From Helicobacter sp. CLO-3 (GTDB lineage Bacteria > Campylobacterota > Campylobacteria > Campylobacterales > Helicobacteraceae), in contig NZ_MLQN01000019.1 of assembly GCF_001854545.1 (NCBI RefSeq), positions 1 through 47,182 of the forward strand: a stretch of 47,182 nucleotides of DNA, in the 5' to 3' direction. Shown piece by piece: positions 1-41,314 of the stretch (its first letter is position 1; each line of letters opens with the position of its first letter). A model generated the notes under the pieces. It was not told the DNA's origin, did not search any database, and worked only from the letters and a program-made list of their open reading frames with translations. A program made the translations under genes and the position numbers.

Positions 1-379
1 AAGATCCTCGCCGCACTAGAGAACTACTAAAACCACTAAGGCCCTATATGCAAAAAGTTCGCTTTACTACAAAGATTGGCTACTATACACCTTGGCTGTA
101 TAGGATTCTTAAAAAAATTAAGCGAAATTTTGTTTAAGAAACAAAAAATTAATAAAATTTTATAGATAATTTTAACAAAATATATTTTTATTCTCTGAAT
201 GCTTCAAGCTAACAATTTTACACTTTCGAACAAAAATTCGAAATAAGAGAAGTGCAAAATCGCTGTGTATAAATCGCAGAATCTAGCTAAAATACGATTT
301 TGTTTTGCCCATTTTATTTGCTAGATTTTGCAAATTGTTTGCGTAAAAAAATTATCTAAAAATCACCAAAAGGACACAT

Positions 380-1207
380 ATGCAAGCAGGGATTATAGGG
401 CTTGGGTTGATAGGCGGGAGTATGGGGCTGGCACTTCGCAAAAGCGAGGGCTTCACGCGCATCATCGGGCATGATGTCAATGCGCTTCACTGCCAGCAAG
501 CGCTACTACTTGGGCTAGTGGATGAGTGCGTGGATTTTGAGCAAATTTTGAAATGTGATGTGATATTTATCGCCACGCCGCTTGATGCGATAATCTCGAT
601 ACTTCAAAGCATCGATTCGCTGCCTTCAACCACTACTATCATCGATCTAGGCGGGGCGAAAGAGCAAATCATCCGCGCCGTGCCAGAGCAAATACGCAAA
701 AACTTCATCGCCGCCCATCCCATGAGCGGGACAGAAAACTATGGTCCAAATGCCGCGCTAGAGGGACTTTTTTATAATAAAATCGTGATTTTGGCAGATC
801 TAGAAAATAGCGGCGAGCTGCAAGTAGCACTAGCAAAGCAAATATTTAATGACATAGGCATGCGCATCATCAAAATGAGTGCCAAAGAGCATGATAGGCA
901 TGTGGCGTTTATCTCGCATCTGCCGCATGTGATTTCATTTGCGCTGGCAAACACGGTGCTTTCACAAGAAGAGCCGCAAAATATTTTGGCACTCATTGGC
1001 GGGGGCTTCAAGGATATGAGTCGCATCGCCAAAAGCTCGCCTATCATGTGGCGCGATGTGTTTGCGCAAAACAAGCAGAATCTGCTGGATTCTATCGAGT
1101 GCTTTGGCAAGGAGATGATATACGCGGAGACGCTTATCAAAGAGGAGCGCTGGGAGGATCTCATAGAGTGGATGAAGCGCGCAAATTCGCTGCATGAGTT
1201 TATGTAG
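380..1207 (+). CDS. tyrA: Prephenate dehydrogenase (TyrA family), NAD-binding
   Basis: N-terminal Rossmann GxGxxG (GLGLIGGSMGLAL) and a TyrA-type HPMSG motif (AAHPMSGTE). ATG at 380 follows a weak SD-like AAAAGGA. Length 275 aa fits monofunctional TyrA. Confidence 0.75.
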   Translation: MQAGIIGLGLIGGSMGLALRKSEGFTRIIGHDVNALHCQQALLLGLVDECVDFEQILKCDVIFIATPLDAIISILQSIDSLPSTTTIIDLGGAKEQIIRAVPEQIRKNFIAAHPMSGTENYGPNAALEGLFYNKIVILADLENSGELQVALAKQIFNDIGMRIIKMSAKEHDRHVAFISHLPHVISFALANTVLSQEEPQNILALIGGGFKDMSRIAKSSPIMWRDVFAQNKQNLLDSIECFGKEMIYAETLIKEERWEDLIEWMKRANSLHEFM

Positions 1208-1729
1208 ATTCTGTGTCTTGTGTGGATTTTGGGGTAAATTTTGGAGCGCAGAGTGGGTATCTGGTGCAAAGCAAACATGAAGTGCAATAGGTATTGAAGT
1301 AAAGCAGGCGCAGAATCTAGATTTTAGATTCTCGTTTTGCGGAGATAAAATAGCAAATCCAAGAAAGGCGGGGCTAAGAAAACCCCGCAAGCCCTAGCGC
1401 TTAACATTTATCCTAATTTTAAAGCCAAAAAGCTTGAAATTTAGATATAATGCAAACGCAAGGCTTTTGTTATGCTTCCTCATAACTCCGCCTTTACATT
1501 GGAATGCGCCCCAATATAAATTGGGGCGAGGTATTATACTGCTTTCACGCTTATATTGCGATTTATGCCACCGATTGCCACTCAAATAAACAAATTTCAA
1601 ATCCAAAATCCAGATTCTAATCAAACGCAAGATTAATGCCAAACAAGCGCCCTGCCCTGCTCTAGCTCTGCTTTGCAAAATTTCGCAAGATTCTCTAAAA
1701 TCCCGCAAATTTTCGCGCGCTATCTCACA

Positions 1730-2227
1730 CTATTTCCCGCCACTAGTATTCCCTAGAATCCTCGCATGCGTGATGGCAATAGCGATGGCATCGGTGATGT
1801 CTAGCGGTTTTATCTCTGCTTTGATGCCTAGAATCTGCTTCACCATAAACGCCACTTGATTTTTATCCGCCTTGCCATTGCCTGTGATTGCCTTTTTCAC
1901 TTGCAGCGGCGTGTATTCGGCGAAGTTGCCTATATCTTGCAGGATTTTTAGGCTGATAGCGCCACGCATTTGTGCTAGCTTCAGCACGCTTTTGGGATTA
2001 TAAGCATAGAAAATATCCTCCATCGCCACAGAATCTATTTTGTGCTCTTTTAGCACCAAATCTATGCCTTCGACAAATTCGAGAATCTGGCTTTGCAAAT
2101 CACGCTCTTTTATTTTGATAAACCCAGCTTCTATGAGCTTCAGCGCGCCAGCATTTGCACTCGTGCCACTAGAAATGACAGCATAGCCACAATTCCTGCT
2201 TCCCGGATCAATCCCAAGCACTATCAT
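1730..2227 (-). CDS. ruvC: Crossover junction endodeoxyribonuclease RuvC
   Basis: [19 protein letters not shown]-terminus (RNase H-like fold with catalytic Asp), length 165 aa, typical of RuvC. Confidence 0.9.
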
Positions 2228-2256
2228 AATTTCAAATCCTGTATATTTGTTTTATG

Positions 2257-2387
2257 TTTTTCACATATTGTTTTTGCTAGAATCCTGCGTTCTAAACGCG
2301 CTATTTTAGTGCATAAGCGCTATGAGATTCGTTAAATTTGCTAAATTATTCACGCAAATGATAAAAGTTATTCACATATTTTTCACT
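2257..2387 (+). promoter_or_regulatory. Cluster of four DnaA-box-like 9-mers upstream of dnaA: candidate oriC1 and dnaA promoter region
   Basis: TTTTTCACA at 2257-2265, TTATTCACG at 2346-2354, TTATTCACA at 2368-2376, TTTTTCACT at 2379-2387. All are in the same orientation in the ruvC-dnaA intergenic region. Each is 1-2 mismatches from the canonical TTATCCACA and close to Helicobacter-type T(T/C)ATTCACA boxes. Confidence 0.55.
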
Positions 2388-2464
2388 AGCTTAGCGCGCC
2401 AATGTGACAAACCAAAGCAAGACAAATTCAAAACACCAGCACAGCAAACTAGCAAGGAGAATCT

Positions 2465-3784
2465 ATGATTTGGGATGAAGTGCTTCAGCATATCAAAAAA
2501 GAAGTATCGCCTCAAGAATTTGATAAATATATTTCTTTGATGAAATACGATGAAAACGCCTCCAAAAGCAACCTTGCCGTATTTATCGTCCCAAACCCTT
2601 ACATAAAAACATGGATAGAAACCAGCTACGCCGAAAGCATCGCGCATATCTTTGAAATCATCAATAAAACCAAAACCGAGGTAAAAATCGAAGTCGCCAA
2701 AGAAAAACAAGGCAATAAAAGCCAAAAAGCCAAAAACCAGCGCATACAAGAACAGCATTTCCTAAACTCGCAACAAACCTTTGATAACTTCGTAGTAGGA
2801 AGCAGCAACGAGCACGCCTTCACCGTCGCCGAAAGCGCCGCCAAGCGCCAAGCCACCGCGTTTAACCCGCTGCTGATATACGGGCACACCGGACTTGGCA
2901 AAACGCACCTTTTATACGCGATAGGCAACTTTGCAATGGAACATCGCAAAAAAGTGATATACATAACCGCCGAAGAGTTTATGAATGAATACCACAAACA
3001 CCTAAAACAGCGCACTATGGATGCTTTTAGAGATGTGTATCGCAATTGTGATTATCTGCTTATTGATGATGTGCAGTTTCTAGGCGGGAAGAGCAACTTG
3101 CAAGAGGAGTTTTTCAACACTTTTGAGGCGCTGTATAAAAGCAAAAAACAAATCGTCATGACTTCTGATAAACTACCAAAGCAAATCCAAGGACTAGAGG
3201 AGCGGATAAGGTCGAGGTTTGAAGGCGGGATGATGATGGAAATCCAGCCCCCAGAGATAGAGACAAAGGTGCGCATCATCGAGCAAAAATGCCGCGACAA
3301 CCAAATAAATATGGATAAAGAAACCATAAACTTCCTAGCAGAAAACATAAATGAAAACATCCGCCAGATTGAGAGCGTAATACTCAAGCTAAACTTCCAG
3401 CACTCCATAACAAACCAGCCCATAAGCATATCTATGGCAAAAAATGTCCTAAAAGAAATCCAAAAAGAAGCCAATGAAGAAATCGGGCTAGAAAAAATCA
3501 TAAACGCCGTCGCTAAAGAATGCAATGTAAAACCAAGCGAAATCATCTCCAAATCGCGCACCTCGCGCATCGTGCAAGCAAGGCATCTAGTCATCTATCT
3601 CACAAGAACACTCGCTTCATCGATAGATTCTATGGGGATGCTCGCACAAAAGCTAAATATGAAAGACCACAGCGCGATTTCAAAGGCATTCACCCAAATC
3701 AGCAAAAAGATAGAAAGCGATGAGAATCTAAAACGACTCTCAAAAGAGCTAAAAAACAAAATACAAAACGAAAAAAGCCTATAA
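2465..3784 (+). CDS. dnaA: Chromosomal replication initiator protein DnaA
   Basis: AAA+ Walker A GHTGLGKTHLL, Walker B LLIDDVQFL, C-terminal DnaA-box-binding domain (IVQARHLVIYLTRTL). Strong SD AAGGAG before ATG at 2465. Confidence 0.95.
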   Translation: MIWDEVLQHIKKEVSPQEFDKYISLMKYDENASKSNLAVFIVPNPYIKTWIETSYAESIAHIFEIINKTKTEVKIEVAKEKQGNKSQKAKNQRIQEQHFLNSQQTFDNFVVGSSNEHAFTVAESAAKRQATAFNPLLIYGHTGLGKTHLLYAIGNFAMEHRKKVIYITAEEFMNEYHKHLKQRTMDAFRDVYRNCDYLLIDDVQFLGGKSNLQEEFFNTFEALYKSKKQIVMTSDKLPKQIQGLEERIRSRFEGGMMMEIQPPEIETKVRIIEQKCRDNQINMDKETINFLAENINENIRQIESVILKLNFQHSITNQPISISMAKNVLKEIQKEANEEIGLEKIINAVAKECNVKPSEIISKSRTSRIVQARHLVIYLTRTLASSIDSMGMLAQKLNMKDHSAISKAFTQISKKIESDENLKRLSKELKNKIQNEKSL

Positions 3785-3934: not shown

Positions 3935-5035
3935 ATGAAAATCACGCTAAACAAGACAAACTTCGAAATGATCCTAAACAACTTCCAATCATTTCTCGAC
4001 AAAAAAGACTCATCACAAATCACATCCCATATCTACCTAGAAACTATGGGTGATAAGCTACTTATGAAAGCGACAGATTATGAGATCTCTATCCAATCAA
4101 AGATTGATATCTTGCAAAACGCAGAGGATGGCATCGCTACGATAGAGGGCAAAAAAATACTTCCCATCATCAAACAACTAAAAGATGGCGAAGTCACACT
4201 AGAAACAAAAGACAGCCAAATACTTGTAAAACAAGGAAAGGCGAAGTTTAAGCTTTCTACATTTAACGCAGCAGAATTCAACAACGCCACAAAATTCCCA
4301 GAAATCAGCGAAAATGACACAAAGATAAATCTAGATTCTATCGATTTCATCAAATCAATCGAGAAAGTGGCAGTGGCAGCGGATTCTAGCGCGCACAAAA
4401 TAGATAATCATCGCATCGAGCTCACAGGGACACTTATCGATGTGAAAGATTATTATTGCAACTTTGTAGGCACAGATACTAGAAGACTAGCGATAATCCG
4501 CCAAAACACCCAATCTATCGGCACGCAACTTTCTATCATCATCCCCAAACGCGCGATTTTAGAGATAAAAAAGCTCTTTTCTGATGATTTTGAGATATTT
4601 TTCTCACAGACGATGCTTTTTGTGCGCTCGCAAAATTACGCGTTTTCTACCAAGCTCATAAATGGCAAATATCCAGACTATGAGAAAATCATCCCAAAAG
4701 ATTTCAAAATGCAGCTAAAACTGCCAAAAAGAGACATCGAAGAAGCGATAAACCTCATCAAATCATTATCAGTAAATGTCAAAATCACGCTAGATTCTAA
4801 TGGCTTGCTTTTTGAAGCGATGAGCTCTGAAGAGCTAGAATCTGCTAGCACGCAAATCGAGCTTCCACTAGAGATACCAGAGCCTATCACGCTTGGGATG
4901 AATGCGCAATATATCTTAGATTTCTTGCGATATATCAATGTGGCAGAGTTTGAGATTTTGATAAATGAAGCGAATATGCCTTTTATGCTTAGAGATGAAA
5001 ATTACTCTACTATCATTATGCCAGTGCTTTGCTAG
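3935..5035 (+). CDS. dnaN: DNA polymerase III beta sliding clamp
   Basis: 366 aa, three-domain beta clamp architecture, position immediately after dnaA, strong SD AAAGGAG before the ATG. Confidence 0.9.
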   Translation: MKITLNKTNFEMILNNFQSFLDKKDSSQITSHIYLETMGDKLLMKATDYEISIQSKIDILQNAEDGIATIEGKKILPIIKQLKDGEVTLETKDSQILVKQGKAKFKLSTFNAAEFNNATKFPEISENDTKINLDSIDFIKSIEKVAVAADSSAHKIDNHRIELTGTLIDVKDYYCNFVGTDTRRLAIIRQNTQSIGTQLSIIIPKRAILEIKKLFSDDFEIFFSQTMLFVRSQNYAFSTKLINGKYPDYEKIIPKDFKMQLKLPKRDIEEAINLIKSLSVNVKITLDSNGLLFEAMSSEELESASTQIELPLEIPEPITLGMNAQYILDFLRYINVAEFEILINEANMPFMLRDENYSTIIMPVLC

Positions 5036-5087: not shown

Positions 5088-7460
<2,373 letters not shown>

Positions 7461-33308: not shown

Positions 33309-34436
33309 ATGACAAAAACAGCACAAACAGCACAAACAGCACAAACAGCACAAATACCAGCAGTGGTAAAATATGTAAAACACCAGCTAGGCGCATATTT
33401 TGTGCGCTTTATGCGTTTTATGCGCTTTGCTTGGCTAAGTGCCTTGCTGTTTGCAAGTGCGGCTAGCGCTTCAGATTTTGTCTATGGGCGCGCGATTATC
33501 GCTAGCGATAAGGTATTTTTCCTCGCAGATCGCGGCGCAAGGTCTGGCAACACGCCACCGCCAAACTACATCATGCCAAATCAAGTATTTGCATTTAGCC
33601 ATTTTGACAGAAGTGGCAGAAACGACAAATCTTCGCTTTGCGGGGACTCTAGCCAAAAAATCGCAGATGATAGCGGTATAGTGCGCTGCATCACCCCAAA
33701 AAGCACCAATATAGTCATAAACCCCGCTTTGCATGTTAACATCATGCGACTAAAAATAAGCGCGCAAGAATCATCACTAGATAAATTGTCACCGGATGAA
33801 TCGTCACCAGCAGAATCTAGTCTAGGCAAATCTAGCCCCGCAAAATCCAGCGCGCGCCAATACAAAGAAATAAGCAAGCGCTATGGCTTTGGGCGCAATG
33901 AGCGGAATGGTATCGTGCAGTGGGGCTGGACGACTTCTGATATACCTGATGATGTGCTGGGATTTCAAGAGGTGGTGCTGGCGCATAGTGATAGCGCGCT
34001 GAAGCTTTATAAAGAGCCTTTGCTAGAATCTGAAATCATCCTGCAAGGCGTGCATGCGAGCTCTAGCGCGATACTGCCGCGCACAGCAGAATCTAAAAGA
34101 GCGCGCGATGATATAGCGAGTGGCAAAAAGATAGTGCCAGATGCTACGACTGCGAATATGGCGCTGCTGGCAATCCCAGAGGTGTTGTTTGAAAGCTATT
34201 TGGGCGATCGTATATTTTTGGTAGGGTATGTGGAGGGTGAAAAAAATAGCGCTTCGCCAAACAAAGCAGAATCCAAATCAAGGCCTCGAGCAGAATCCAA
34301 GCAAACAGAATCCCAAGCGGAATCTAAAAATAAGGCAGAATCCAAAAAAGGCAGATTCTACCAAGCGATAGTGGTGCGCGATGAGTCGGTGTATTTTTGG
34401 GATATTTTGCAGAAAATGAATTACAATCCACGATAA
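33309..34436 (+). CDS. Hypothetical secreted protein with an N-terminal (TAQ)4 repeat and Ser/Glu/Lys-rich low-complexity runs
   Basis: SD AAAAAGG. Hydrophobic signal-like segment FAWLSALLFASAASASD after an extended N-region. A 9-nt repeat x4 at 33321-33356. AESK-type C-terminal repeats. Confidence 0.55.
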   Translation: MTKTAQTAQTAQTAQIPAVVKYVKHQLGAYFVRFMRFMRFAWLSALLFASAASASDFVYGRAIIASDKVFFLADRGARSGNTPPPNYIMPNQVFAFSHFDRSGRNDKSSLCGDSSQKIADDSGIVRCITPKSTNIVINPALHVNIMRLKISAQESSLDKLSPDESSPAESSLGKSSPAKSSARQYKEISKRYGFGRNERNGIVQWGWTTSDIPDDVLGFQEVVLAHSDSALKLYKEPLLESEIILQGVHASSSAILPRTAESKRARDDIASGKKIVPDATTANMALLAIPEVLFESYLGDRIFLVGYVEGEKNSASPNKAESKSRPRAESKQTESQAESKNKAESKKGRFYQAIVVRDESVYFWDILQKMNYNPR

Positions 34437-39487: not shown

Positions 39488-39976
39488 ATGGCATACACGA
39501 TAAAAGAAGTCGAAAAACTAACCGGTGTGAGCGCGCATACGATTAGGTATTGGGCGAAGCGCGGGCTGTTTTCACATATCGAGCGCGATGAAAACAATGT
39601 GCGCTATTTTTCAGAGCGCGATTTGCAATGGGTGGCGCTGGCGCAGTGCATGCGCGAGACTGGCATGAGTATCGCTAAAATCAGCGAGTTTGTCGAGCTT
39701 TGCAAGCTAGGCGATAGCAGCATCCCCCAGCGACTTGAGATGATAAAGGCTCAAGAACGCGAGATCATCGCCACTTTGCAAAGCTATGAAAAAGCGCTCA
39801 AAGTCGTGCAAAAAAAGATAGAATCCTATGAAAACGCCCTAAGCACGCAAAAGCCAGACGCGCTTACTTTGGGGAGTGATGAGAGGCTTCGCGATTACTA
39901 CAAACAAGATCGCGCCTACAAAAGCCTGCAAGACAACGCCAGCGGCAAAAGAAAGCTCGCAAAACGCAAAAAATAA
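39488..39976 (+). CDS. MerR-family transcriptional regulator
   Basis: N-terminal MerR HTH (YTIKEVEKLTGVSAHTIRYWAKRGLF), coiled-coil dimerisation helix, basic C-terminal tail. 162 aa. Confidence 0.85.
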   Translation: MAYTIKEVEKLTGVSAHTIRYWAKRGLFSHIERDENNVRYFSERDLQWVALAQCMRETGMSIAKISEFVELCKLGDSSIPQRLEMIKAQEREIIATLQSYEKALKVVQKKIESYENALSTQKPDALTLGSDERLRDYYKQDRAYKSLQDNASGKRKLAKRKK

Positions 39977-40111: not shown

Positions 40112-41314
40112 ATGCCCCTCACGCAAAATAATAGTAAAAATCTCACCATAGGATTTTTGTGTGGCAAAAAAGAGCTTGGGACGAGCGCGGCTTATTGCAA
40201 AGCACTTTTTGCGCTTAAACAAATATATCGCTGTCGCTTGGTGCTTTTTGGCAATGCAATAACGCAAAATCTTTACTCACAATGCGACTTCATCGATGAG
40301 AATCTAGACATGGGCGAGCCGGACACCAGCATCAAAAGCCCCAAATCGCGCGAGCAAATCGCTACGATAAATAGCTGTGCGCTTGATTATCTTATCGTCG
40401 CTGATGCAAAAAGCGCATTTATTAGATTTTGTCTCACCACTAGCGCTAGGCGCGTCATCTGCGGGCTCAAAGCTATCAGCCTGCTATCATGGCGCACGCG
40501 CACCATCCCCATATATGCCAGCGCAAAATACGCCAATACACATTATGATGATTTGCTGCTTTATTTTGCTCGCAGGATAAACCCCAGAATCTATGAAGCG
40601 CGCGTAGGCGAGGTGGATTTCTCGCATGCTAGATTTTATGCAGATGATAAAGCGAAGCAAAAAGTGGATGTTTTTCTGGCAAAACATGGCGTAGAAAAAG
40701 CATTTGTAATATCAGGCAAAGCTAGCGCAGAATCTGTAGAATCTAAAGCTAGTGTATCGGGCATGGATTCCGCATGCCTTGTTGCCCCCCCCCCTATCGA
40801 GAAATCACTATTTGACAAATCACATACTAGCCACCGCCCAAAGCTAATCCTCATAAATCCTTTCAATGTAAATAACCCGCACACGCTTCCGCTCGTGTAT
40901 TGGCTAGAGCTTATCGCGCGCATAAGCCAAAATAGCGCATATAAAGTGGTGATAGCGACTTATCCAGCGGTGGCGGAGTCGTTTGCCCGTGCGCTAGATT
41001 CTCTGCCAAATAATGTGCGCGAGCGCATCGCGGTGTTTCACAACGACGCAAACCTCCTAAATCTGGTGGCTTTGCTTGAGAAAATGGACTGCCTCATATC
41101 CCCAAGCACCGGCACGATACACATAGCAAATGTGCTAAAAATCCCTGCTATAGGACTATACGCAGACTATGATAGAGGCAGATGGGGGCATGAAAATATC
41201 CGCTATGTCTGCGTGCCAGATAGAGCGCAAAATCTCACACAAGTGCAATGTCAAGGGATTATCGCAAATACCATAAGTCTAGTGGATTCTATTTGTCAAG
41301 TAGAATCCAAATAG
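40112..41314 (+). CDS. GT9-family (ADP-heptose:LPS heptosyltransferase-like) glycosyltransferase carrying an in-frame poly-C tract
   Basis: The C-terminal domain carries the GT9 signature (KLILINPFNVNNPHTLP ... MDCLISPSTGTIHIANVLKIPAIGLYAD, comparable to LLISNDSGPMHLAAALG). SD AAAGGAG. A C10 run at 40785-40794 encodes APPP. Confidence 0.75.
   Translation: MPLTQNNSKNLTIGFLCGKKELGTSAAYCKALFALKQIYRCRLVLFGNAITQNLYSQCDFIDENLDMGEPDTSIKSPKSREQIATINSCALDYLIVADAKSAFIRFCLTTSARRVICGLKAISLLSWRTRTIPIYASAKYANTHYDDLLLYFARRINPRIYEARVGEVDFSHARFYADDKAKQKVDVFLAKHGVEKAFVISGKASAESVESKASVSGMDSACLVAPPPIEKSLFDKSHTSHRPKLILINPFNVNNPHTLPLVYWLELIARISQNSAYKVVIATYPAVAESFARALDSLPNNVRERIAVFHNDANLLNLVALLEKMDCLISPSTGTIHIANVLKIPAIGLYADYDRGRWGHENIRYVCVPDRAQNLTQVQCQGIIANTISLVDSICQVESK
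40785..40794 (+). repeat. Homopolymeric C10 tract inside the GT9 glycosyltransferase ORF (candidate phase-variation switch)
   Basis: gttg-CCCCCCCCCC-tatcgag counted directly. It is in frame in this sequence, so it is read as the ON state. Confidence 0.8.

Follow-up and report, generated by a model that had tools for sequence, protein, structure and literature searches.

The DNA analysed here (the window) is the 47,182-base contig NZ_MLQN01000019.1 of Helicobacter sp. CLO-3. It carries a gene for a glycosyltransferase with the fold of family 9 (GT9), and within the coding sequence of this gene lies an uninterrupted run of ten cytosines (C10), placed between the parts encoding two Rossmann-like domains. 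Based on length alleles of the run in otherwise identical DNA, and on similar tracts in related genes, we consider it probable (about 0.85) that the C10 locus is a true phase-variable contingency locus. The gene and its parts are as follows.

40112–41314, plus strand: GT9-fold glycosyltransferase gene, an open reading frame of 400 residues, assigned by Pfam and by an exact match to WP_070957738.1 / OHU82946.1

40102–40107, plus strand: AAGGAG ribosome-binding site, 4 nucleotides 5' of the ATG at 40112, identified from sequence

40145–40684, plus strand: N-terminal Rossmann-like (acceptor-side) domain, residues 12–191, from AlphaFold secondary structure and the predicted local distance difference test (pLDDT)

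40700–40831, plus strand: disordered interdomain linker of 44 residues (197–240), pLDDT about 30, from the AlphaFold model

40785–40794, plus strand: C10 homopolymeric tract, a candidate mutable switch, in frame, with a length of 9, 10 or 11 among otherwise identical assemblies

40841–41308, plus strand: C-terminal Rossmann-like (nucleotide-sugar-binding) domain, residues 244–399, from Pfam, the model and invariant alignment columns

In the window assembly the gene is in the ON frame, its protein being identical to the two database entries, both from Helicobacter sp. CLO-3. The sequence around the tract, cttgttgCCCCCCCCCCtatcgag, holds exactly ten C's, and the codons at 40784–40795 (GCC CCC CCC CCT) encode Ala225-Pro226-Pro227-Pro228; the position, frame and Ala-Pro-Pro-Pro coding given by an earlier sequence-only reading of this DNA are thus read directly from the letters. 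It is the sole run of at least six C's or G's among the 47,182 bases, in which run lengths end at five and the next is ten. Runs of at least ten C's would be expected 0.010 times in the window under a model of independent bases and 0.0013 times under a first-order Markov model. Codon choice makes the run unlikely as well: across 36 long open reading frames of the window, CCC makes up 20% of proline codons and GCC 15% of alanine codons, which gives a probability of 0.006 that Ala-Pro-Pro-Pro is encoded with at least ten C's, and wherever else two prolines adjoin in the window (13 Pro-Pro dipeptides) CCC-CCC is never used. The C10 tract is real and not a chance feature. When tract lengths from 6 to 14 were simulated, full-length protein resulted at C7, C10 and C13, and all other lengths gave products ending at 233–245 residues, the stop falling six codons past the tract in the frame set by one extra C and 17 codons past it in the frame set by one C fewer. 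Scans for promoters and terminators around the gene did no better than on shuffled sequence, and an Rfam scan of the window returned only a tRNA located elsewhere.

Length alleles were found in DNA that is otherwise identical to the window. The comparison was made on assembly consensus sequences and covered the window together with five other public assemblies, listed here with the state of the gene.

L009 (GCA_001677375.1, MAMQ01000068): 10,736 bp aligned, 0 mismatches, 1 gap; C9; gene split into 244 + 179 residues

L010 (Logan SRR25010925): 7,576 bp aligned, 0 mismatches, 1 gap; C9; truncated product of 244 residues

L002 (GCA_900199605.1): 7,203 bp aligned, 0 mismatches; C10; intact gene

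L003 (Logan ERR6131609): 5,043 bp aligned, 0 mismatches; C10; intact gene

L001 (Logan ERR13194227): 5,545 bp aligned, 0 mismatches, 1 gap; C11; gene split into 234 + 178 residues

The lone gap in each of the three alignments that depart from C10 is the tract itself. Tract length is hence the only change in these OFF alleles, and the half of the gene downstream of it stays an open frame with 0 mismatches. Two deposited proteins, one of 244 residues (P0017, ending ...APPLSRNHYLTNHILATAQS) and one of 234 residues (P0003, ending ...APPPYREITI), are identical to the products simulated for C9 and C11, respectively, which indicates that a change of one C removes the whole C-terminal domain and that both kinds of OFF allele occur naturally. 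The sequence-only reading had predicted that one C gained or lost would truncate the protein before this domain, and the natural products (244 residues at C9 and 234 at C11, against 400 at C10) agree with it. A tract length invariant across isolates, which the same reading had named as evidence against a switch, was not found, the length being 9, 10 or 11 among the assemblies.

The tract has also been kept in more distant relatives. Two sister lineages, P0002 (11 contigs, four loci read) and P0001 (one contig), share 85–86% protein identity and about 90–92% DNA identity with the window and have an uninterrupted C10, retained even where the flanking codons differ (five loci). A further Helicobacter lineage, whose protein is 46% identical and whose guanine plus cytosine (G+C) content is 38%, carries C9 at the homologous linker site in the ON frame (STPPQQ), and also a C8 allele that is OFF and truncated at 221 residues. 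One variant from this lineage (P0028, 391 residues) reads STPPPTHTQ, with an extra proline and an altered sequence after the tract. The commonest allele there, present on 66 contigs, has a tract broken by a single substitution into C3-T-C5 (ACCCTCCCCCAA versus ACCCCCCCCCAA), an interruption that would effectively lock the gene ON; an example is the gene at L016 3953–5119 (uncultured Helicobacter sp. BRZ_RC bin31), to be compared with the C9 at L011 5650–5658. Joint Genome Institute (JGI) metagenome contigs were scanned for the conserved sequence adjoining the tract on its right (TAYCGAGAAATCACTATTTGACAAA), with no match.

For the wider subfamily, only 71 clusters reached E < 1e-30 when 1.84 billion representative proteins were searched exhaustively with HMMER. 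All of its named members come from Helicobacter or lari-group Campylobacter and are labelled only "glycosyltransferase family 9" or "hypothetical". Members found at E-values from 1e-38 to 1e-223 belong to H. bilis, H. canis, H. zhangjianzhongii, H. saguini, Helicobacter sp. MIT 01-3238, Campylobacter armoricus and C. novaezeelandiae. Like the CLO-3 gene, most of these relatives carry a G or C tract in the linker and occur as both intact and split alleles, with tract lengths from 7 to 14. The relatives mostly have poly-G, read as glycine, in contrast to the poly-C (proline) of the CLO-3 group and of the lineage at 46% identity. In H. bilis, whose orthologues form a cluster of 103 members, the linker poly-G is ON at G7 (isolate 37372_8) and G13 (ATCC 51630) and OFF at G12 and at G11, the latter including the finished genome CP019645 (XJ32_08315 + XJ32_08310); one truncated protein from this species implies G14. 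The tract is G10 (ON) in H. canis, G11 (OFF, split into 202 + 220 residues) in H. zhangjianzhongii, G9 (ON) in an uncultured Helicobacter and G10 in Helicobacter sp. MIT 01-3238, and in C. novaezeelandiae a second GT9 copy, which is split, holds a G10 close to its start. Family genes of H. aurati, H. muridarum and H. trogontum are free of tracts. Over 23 genome loci, G or C runs of at least seven numbered 11 in 27 kb of family genes versus 5 in 175 kb of flanks, a 14-fold higher density (binomial p = 6e-7). Of the 13 retrieved representatives that are N-terminal fragments, no two of which share a 50%-identity cluster, 10 end a few residues past GGG/GGGG or PP.

Because poly-C encoding proline is present in some clades and poly-G encoding glycine in others, the tracts are not identical by descent, and the interdomain hinge appears to have gained a mutable tract more than once. 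Tract position also varies within the family, as seen in C. taeniopygiae and C. aviculae, where a G9 lies at the 5' end of the family gene (L029 and L031, both at 3989–3997), just upstream of the region matched by homologues and not in the linker. In C. novaezeelandiae (L035), three tracts fall within 2.5 kb (G9 at 3447–3455, G10 at 4596–4605 and C10 at 5852–5861), in a region of apparent tandem GT9 paralogues, one of them split at its tract.

The protein itself is a divergent enzyme of GT9-type GT-B fold, as indicated by a Pfam match and by structural matches of a predicted model. GT9 (PF01075) is matched by residues 244–371, that is by the C-terminal half only, with 39.8 bits (E = 4e-10) where the cut-off is 22. 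The structure was modelled with AlphaFold2 from 17 homologues (pLDDT 83, predicted TM-score 0.80), and the model has as its best bacterial Foldseek matches in the PDB E. coli WaaF (1psw), a Veillonella GT9 protein (3tov) and E. coli WaaC (2h1h), each at a probability of 1.0, with 11–13% identity and a TM-score of 0.58–0.77 depending on hit and normalisation. As proposed in the sequence-only reading, the tract lies in the linker between two Rossmann-like halves: AlphaFold places residues 225–228 in the middle of linker 197–240, with a confident half on either side. Within the C-terminal domain the motifs NPF (249–251) and SPSTGxxH (330–337) are invariant in the homologue alignment. This domain is removed by the frameshift in OFF alleles, in which the N-terminal domain is the sole folded part remaining (P0003 and P0017). 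Only the CLO-3 lineage group has the long linker, as an insertion, the homologous segment being absent or short (about 5–15 residues) in the proteins of H. aurati, H. muridarum and the H. bilis type.

Taken together, the locus combines an in-frame C tract longer than about 8 with ON and OFF length alleles on an identical background, and shows signs of selective maintenance in the retention of C10 at about 90–92% DNA identity and of C9 at 46% protein identity, in its departure from codon usage (p = 0.006) and in the 14-fold enrichment of tracts in the family. We propose that slipped-strand mispairing in the coding poly-C would switch the GT9 gene stochastically and reversibly. Lengths of 3n+1 (7, 10 and 13) would leave the reading frame intact and make the linker one proline longer or shorter, from which no structural harm is expected; such changes would be tolerated because the linker is disordered, as supported by H. 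bilis ON alleles with two or four glycines. Other lengths would shift the frame within the linker and leave an N-terminal domain of 233–245 residues without the nucleotide-sugar-binding domain. A GT-B enzyme lacking its nucleotide-sugar domain is inactive, and the truncated product would for this reason be inactive too. Length changes would arise by replication slippage, at a rate expected to be high because Helicobacter and Campylobacter lack MutS1/MutL mismatch repair and because of the rates known for C. jejuni G tracts, which switch at 1e-4 to 1.6e-3 per division without functional mismatch repair (PMC8355987). The enzyme would decorate a surface glycan, most probably the outer core or O-chain of lipopolysaccharide (LPS) or lipooligosaccharide (LOS), and its switching would diversify the surface of the population. 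The slipped-strand ON/OFF phase variation suggested in the sequence-only reading is supported by the natural C9, C10 and C11 alleles and by homologues whose G or C tracts come in both ON and OFF forms.

Several observations weigh against phase variation of an LPS glycosyltransferase at this locus. The tract length of any single assembly could be a consensus or homopolymer error, and the NCBI assemblies are possibly all of one strain (CLO-3), so that the number of independent isolates, the origins of the Logan runs included, is uncertain. No OFF allele was seen in the sister lineages, where 12 of 12 contigs are C10 (ON). The gene does not lie in a glycan-biosynthesis cluster, and its naming as an LPS-modification candidate in the sequence-only reading is a conjecture; LPS genes are scattered in H. 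pylori, and for this reason the missing linkage to LPS or heptose genes counts only weakly against a heptosyltransferase. Two motifs also appear to depart from those of WaaC. SVDTGLSH of WaaC aligns to SPSTGTIH (Ser330–His337, window 41099–41122), which sets Ser332 opposite Asp261, in a sequence alignment that is weak (E = 2.2) though in keeping with the structural match. In the N-terminal GD motif, the aspartate appears replaced by Thr24 (ELGTS; Gly23-Thr24, window 40178–40183).

Uncertainty about the assemblies bears on the possibility that the tract merely codes for Pro-Pro-Pro and that C9 and C11 are homopolymer miscalls or consensus errors, with no switching at all. Homopolymers of 9–11 are error-prone on several platforms, the otherwise identical assemblies may be re-sequencings of one strain, and the uniform C10 of the sister contigs would fit as well. 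However, two distinct datasets have C9 and another has C11, and the uninterrupted run has been kept over 8–10% nucleotide divergence against codon usage (p = 0.006). In many species, moreover, homologues have a G or C tract at this site, in genes both intact and split, including the finished H. bilis genome, and a 14-fold enrichment of tracts in family genes cannot be a sequencing artefact; we therefore regard miscalling as quite unlikely. Natural frameshifts could, on the other hand, mark genes decaying into pseudogenes on the way to loss, instead of a reversible OFF state. Split copies are common in the family, and the gene is missing from many Helicobacter species and stands in varying contexts. 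Such decay is nonetheless very unlikely given that OFF alleles differ in tract length alone, with a perfect open frame and 0 mismatches downstream, that several lineages contain ON as well as OFF alleles, and that the uninterrupted tract has been retained over long divergence, at least one lineage having a substitution that would lock the gene ON. Most improbable of all is that frameshifted alleles remain active, through transcriptional or translational slippage on the C run or through halves expressed separately that then associate in the manner of split GT-B enzymes, so that the tract would tune the level of activity. Other systems are known in which RNA polymerase slips on long homopolymers, and this counts for the idea, as does the C-terminal open reading frame of 178–179 residues that gene callers start at an ATG or TTG just before the tract. 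Yet no Shine-Dalgarno-like sequence precedes the internal ATG at 40775, and none of the family members seen without a tract had its halves encoded as two genes with starts of their own. We thus retain reversible phase variation as the explanation of the length alleles.

What the enzyme transfers is a separate matter. Of the description as a GT9 heptosyltransferase-like gene in the sequence-only reading, the GT9 part stands on PF01075 and the fold, but heptosyltransferase activity does not follow: NCBIfam HepI (TIGR02193) scored 29.1 bits against a cut-off of 185.3 and HepII (TIGR02195) 17.5 against 134.6, neither reaching its threshold, and Asp261 of WaaC aligns to Ser332. The xxTGxxH motif is common to WaaC. 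Gly23 is invariant, and relatives of the H. bilis type retain the aspartate after it (GLGDN); Glu21, two residues before Gly23, is conserved in the CLO-3 clade and in close relatives without the aspartate. As Asp13 (GD motif) and Asp261 (VDTG motif) are presumably important in the WaaC heptosyltransferase, the apparent substitution of both suggests that the enzyme may use another donor sugar, or arrange its catalysis differently, than classical GT9 enzymes do. When PDB sequences were searched with a profile, nothing significant came up, and relaxing the limit to E-values of 10 brought only the weak WaaC alignment. Among the named homologues returned by word-index protein searches, none was from H. 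pylori or was a characterised protein, the characterised H. pylori GT9 enzymes included, so the gene is not tied to a known LPS step.

The mechanism proposed here is the slipped-strand phase variation well known in H. pylori and C. jejuni, and it would not surprise a specialist. Known phase-variable LPS/LOS glycosyltransferase genes include futA (HP0379) and futB (HP0651), as well as futC (HP0093/94), of H. pylori and wlaN and cgtA of C. jejuni, with which the CLO-3 gene shares a coding poly-C or poly-G of about 8–14 bases, an ON/OFF state set by frameshift, a target that is a glycosyltransferase and a host-adapted Campylobacterota host without classical mismatch repair. The H. pylori Fut enzymes belong to CAZy families GT10/GT11. 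Unlike them, the CLO-3 enzyme has a GT9 fold and its tract lies in a disordered interdomain linker; it is known from sequence alone. WaaC (2h1h) and WaaF (1psw) share with it the GT-B fold, PF01075 and the C-terminal xxTGxxH, at only 11–13% identity, and differ from it in that the CLO-3 protein has the 44-residue disordered linker. Frameshifts in homopolymeric tracts of the H. pylori fut genes have been described, and the H. pylori GT9 enzymes HP0279, HP1191, HP1284, HP0479 and HP1283 have been listed with none of them described as phase variable (PMC6892558). In the searchable literature, including the PhasomeIt Campylobacter catalogue, we found no GT9 gene, and no member of this subfamily, described as phase variable. 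What is new is the direct allelic evidence and the finding that the switch apparently came to lie in a disordered interdomain hinge more than once.

Two further ideas may be put forward together, tentatively and as possible rather than expected. The hinge of the GT9 subfamily could be a preferred site for contingency switches, where a mutable homopolymer evolved at least twice, because in-frame length changes there would be neutral; and the enzyme of the CLO-3 clade may transfer a sugar other than heptose, which would be a new GT9 activity.

Surface glycans and immune evasion are almost unstudied in CLO-3, H. bilis and H. canis, which belong to the enterohepatic helicobacters found in humans and animals, and the locus gives this group a tangible contingency gene that lends itself to simple assays. 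Because OFF alleles are annotated as two "hypothetical" or partial genes, an intact switchable gene is hidden in the databases. In public annotation the pair appears as "hypothetical protein" plus "glycosyltransferase family 9", as at L009 5001–6202 (BA723_06235 / BA723_06240) and at L039 1501–2524 (H. bilis CP019645, XJ32_08315 / XJ32_08310), and the 90% protein cluster holding the window protein has the truncated form of 234 residues as its representative.

In the window, the neighbours of the GT9 gene encode a methyl-accepting chemotaxis protein (MCP), a PAS protein, an aldo-keto reductase, a MerR/NmlR-like regulator, a DEAD helicase, IlvE, a Band7 protein and HisIE; homologues elsewhere adjoin dnaG, glmS, MCP or recA. 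The MerR-family gene (39488–39976) lies directly upstream. The sequence-only reading had placed the GT9 gene beside it in an accessory block, and of this only the adjacency held. An accessory island was rejected, since the G+C content of the gene (0.42–0.47) equals that of its flanks and synteny is kept in the sister lineages. A functional link to the MerR/NmlR-like regulator was likewise unsupported, as the adjacency is limited to the CLO-3 lineage group.

Other repeats of a similar kind were seen beside family genes and elsewhere in the window. On H. bilis contigs, about 3 kb 3' of the GT9 gene, there are a C11 (L022 7918–7928), a C13 (L023 7890–7902) and a G9 (L023 8140–8148), apparently between minus-strand open reading frames or at their 5' ends. 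Their lengths differ between the two strains, and they are probably additional phase-variable loci. In the window itself, a 9-bp unit (AAACAGCAC) is repeated perfectly in tandem (4.3 copies, 100% match) at 33316–33354, at the extreme 5' end of the open reading frame 33309–34436; the unit is an in-frame multiple of three, and the repeat could vary in copy number.

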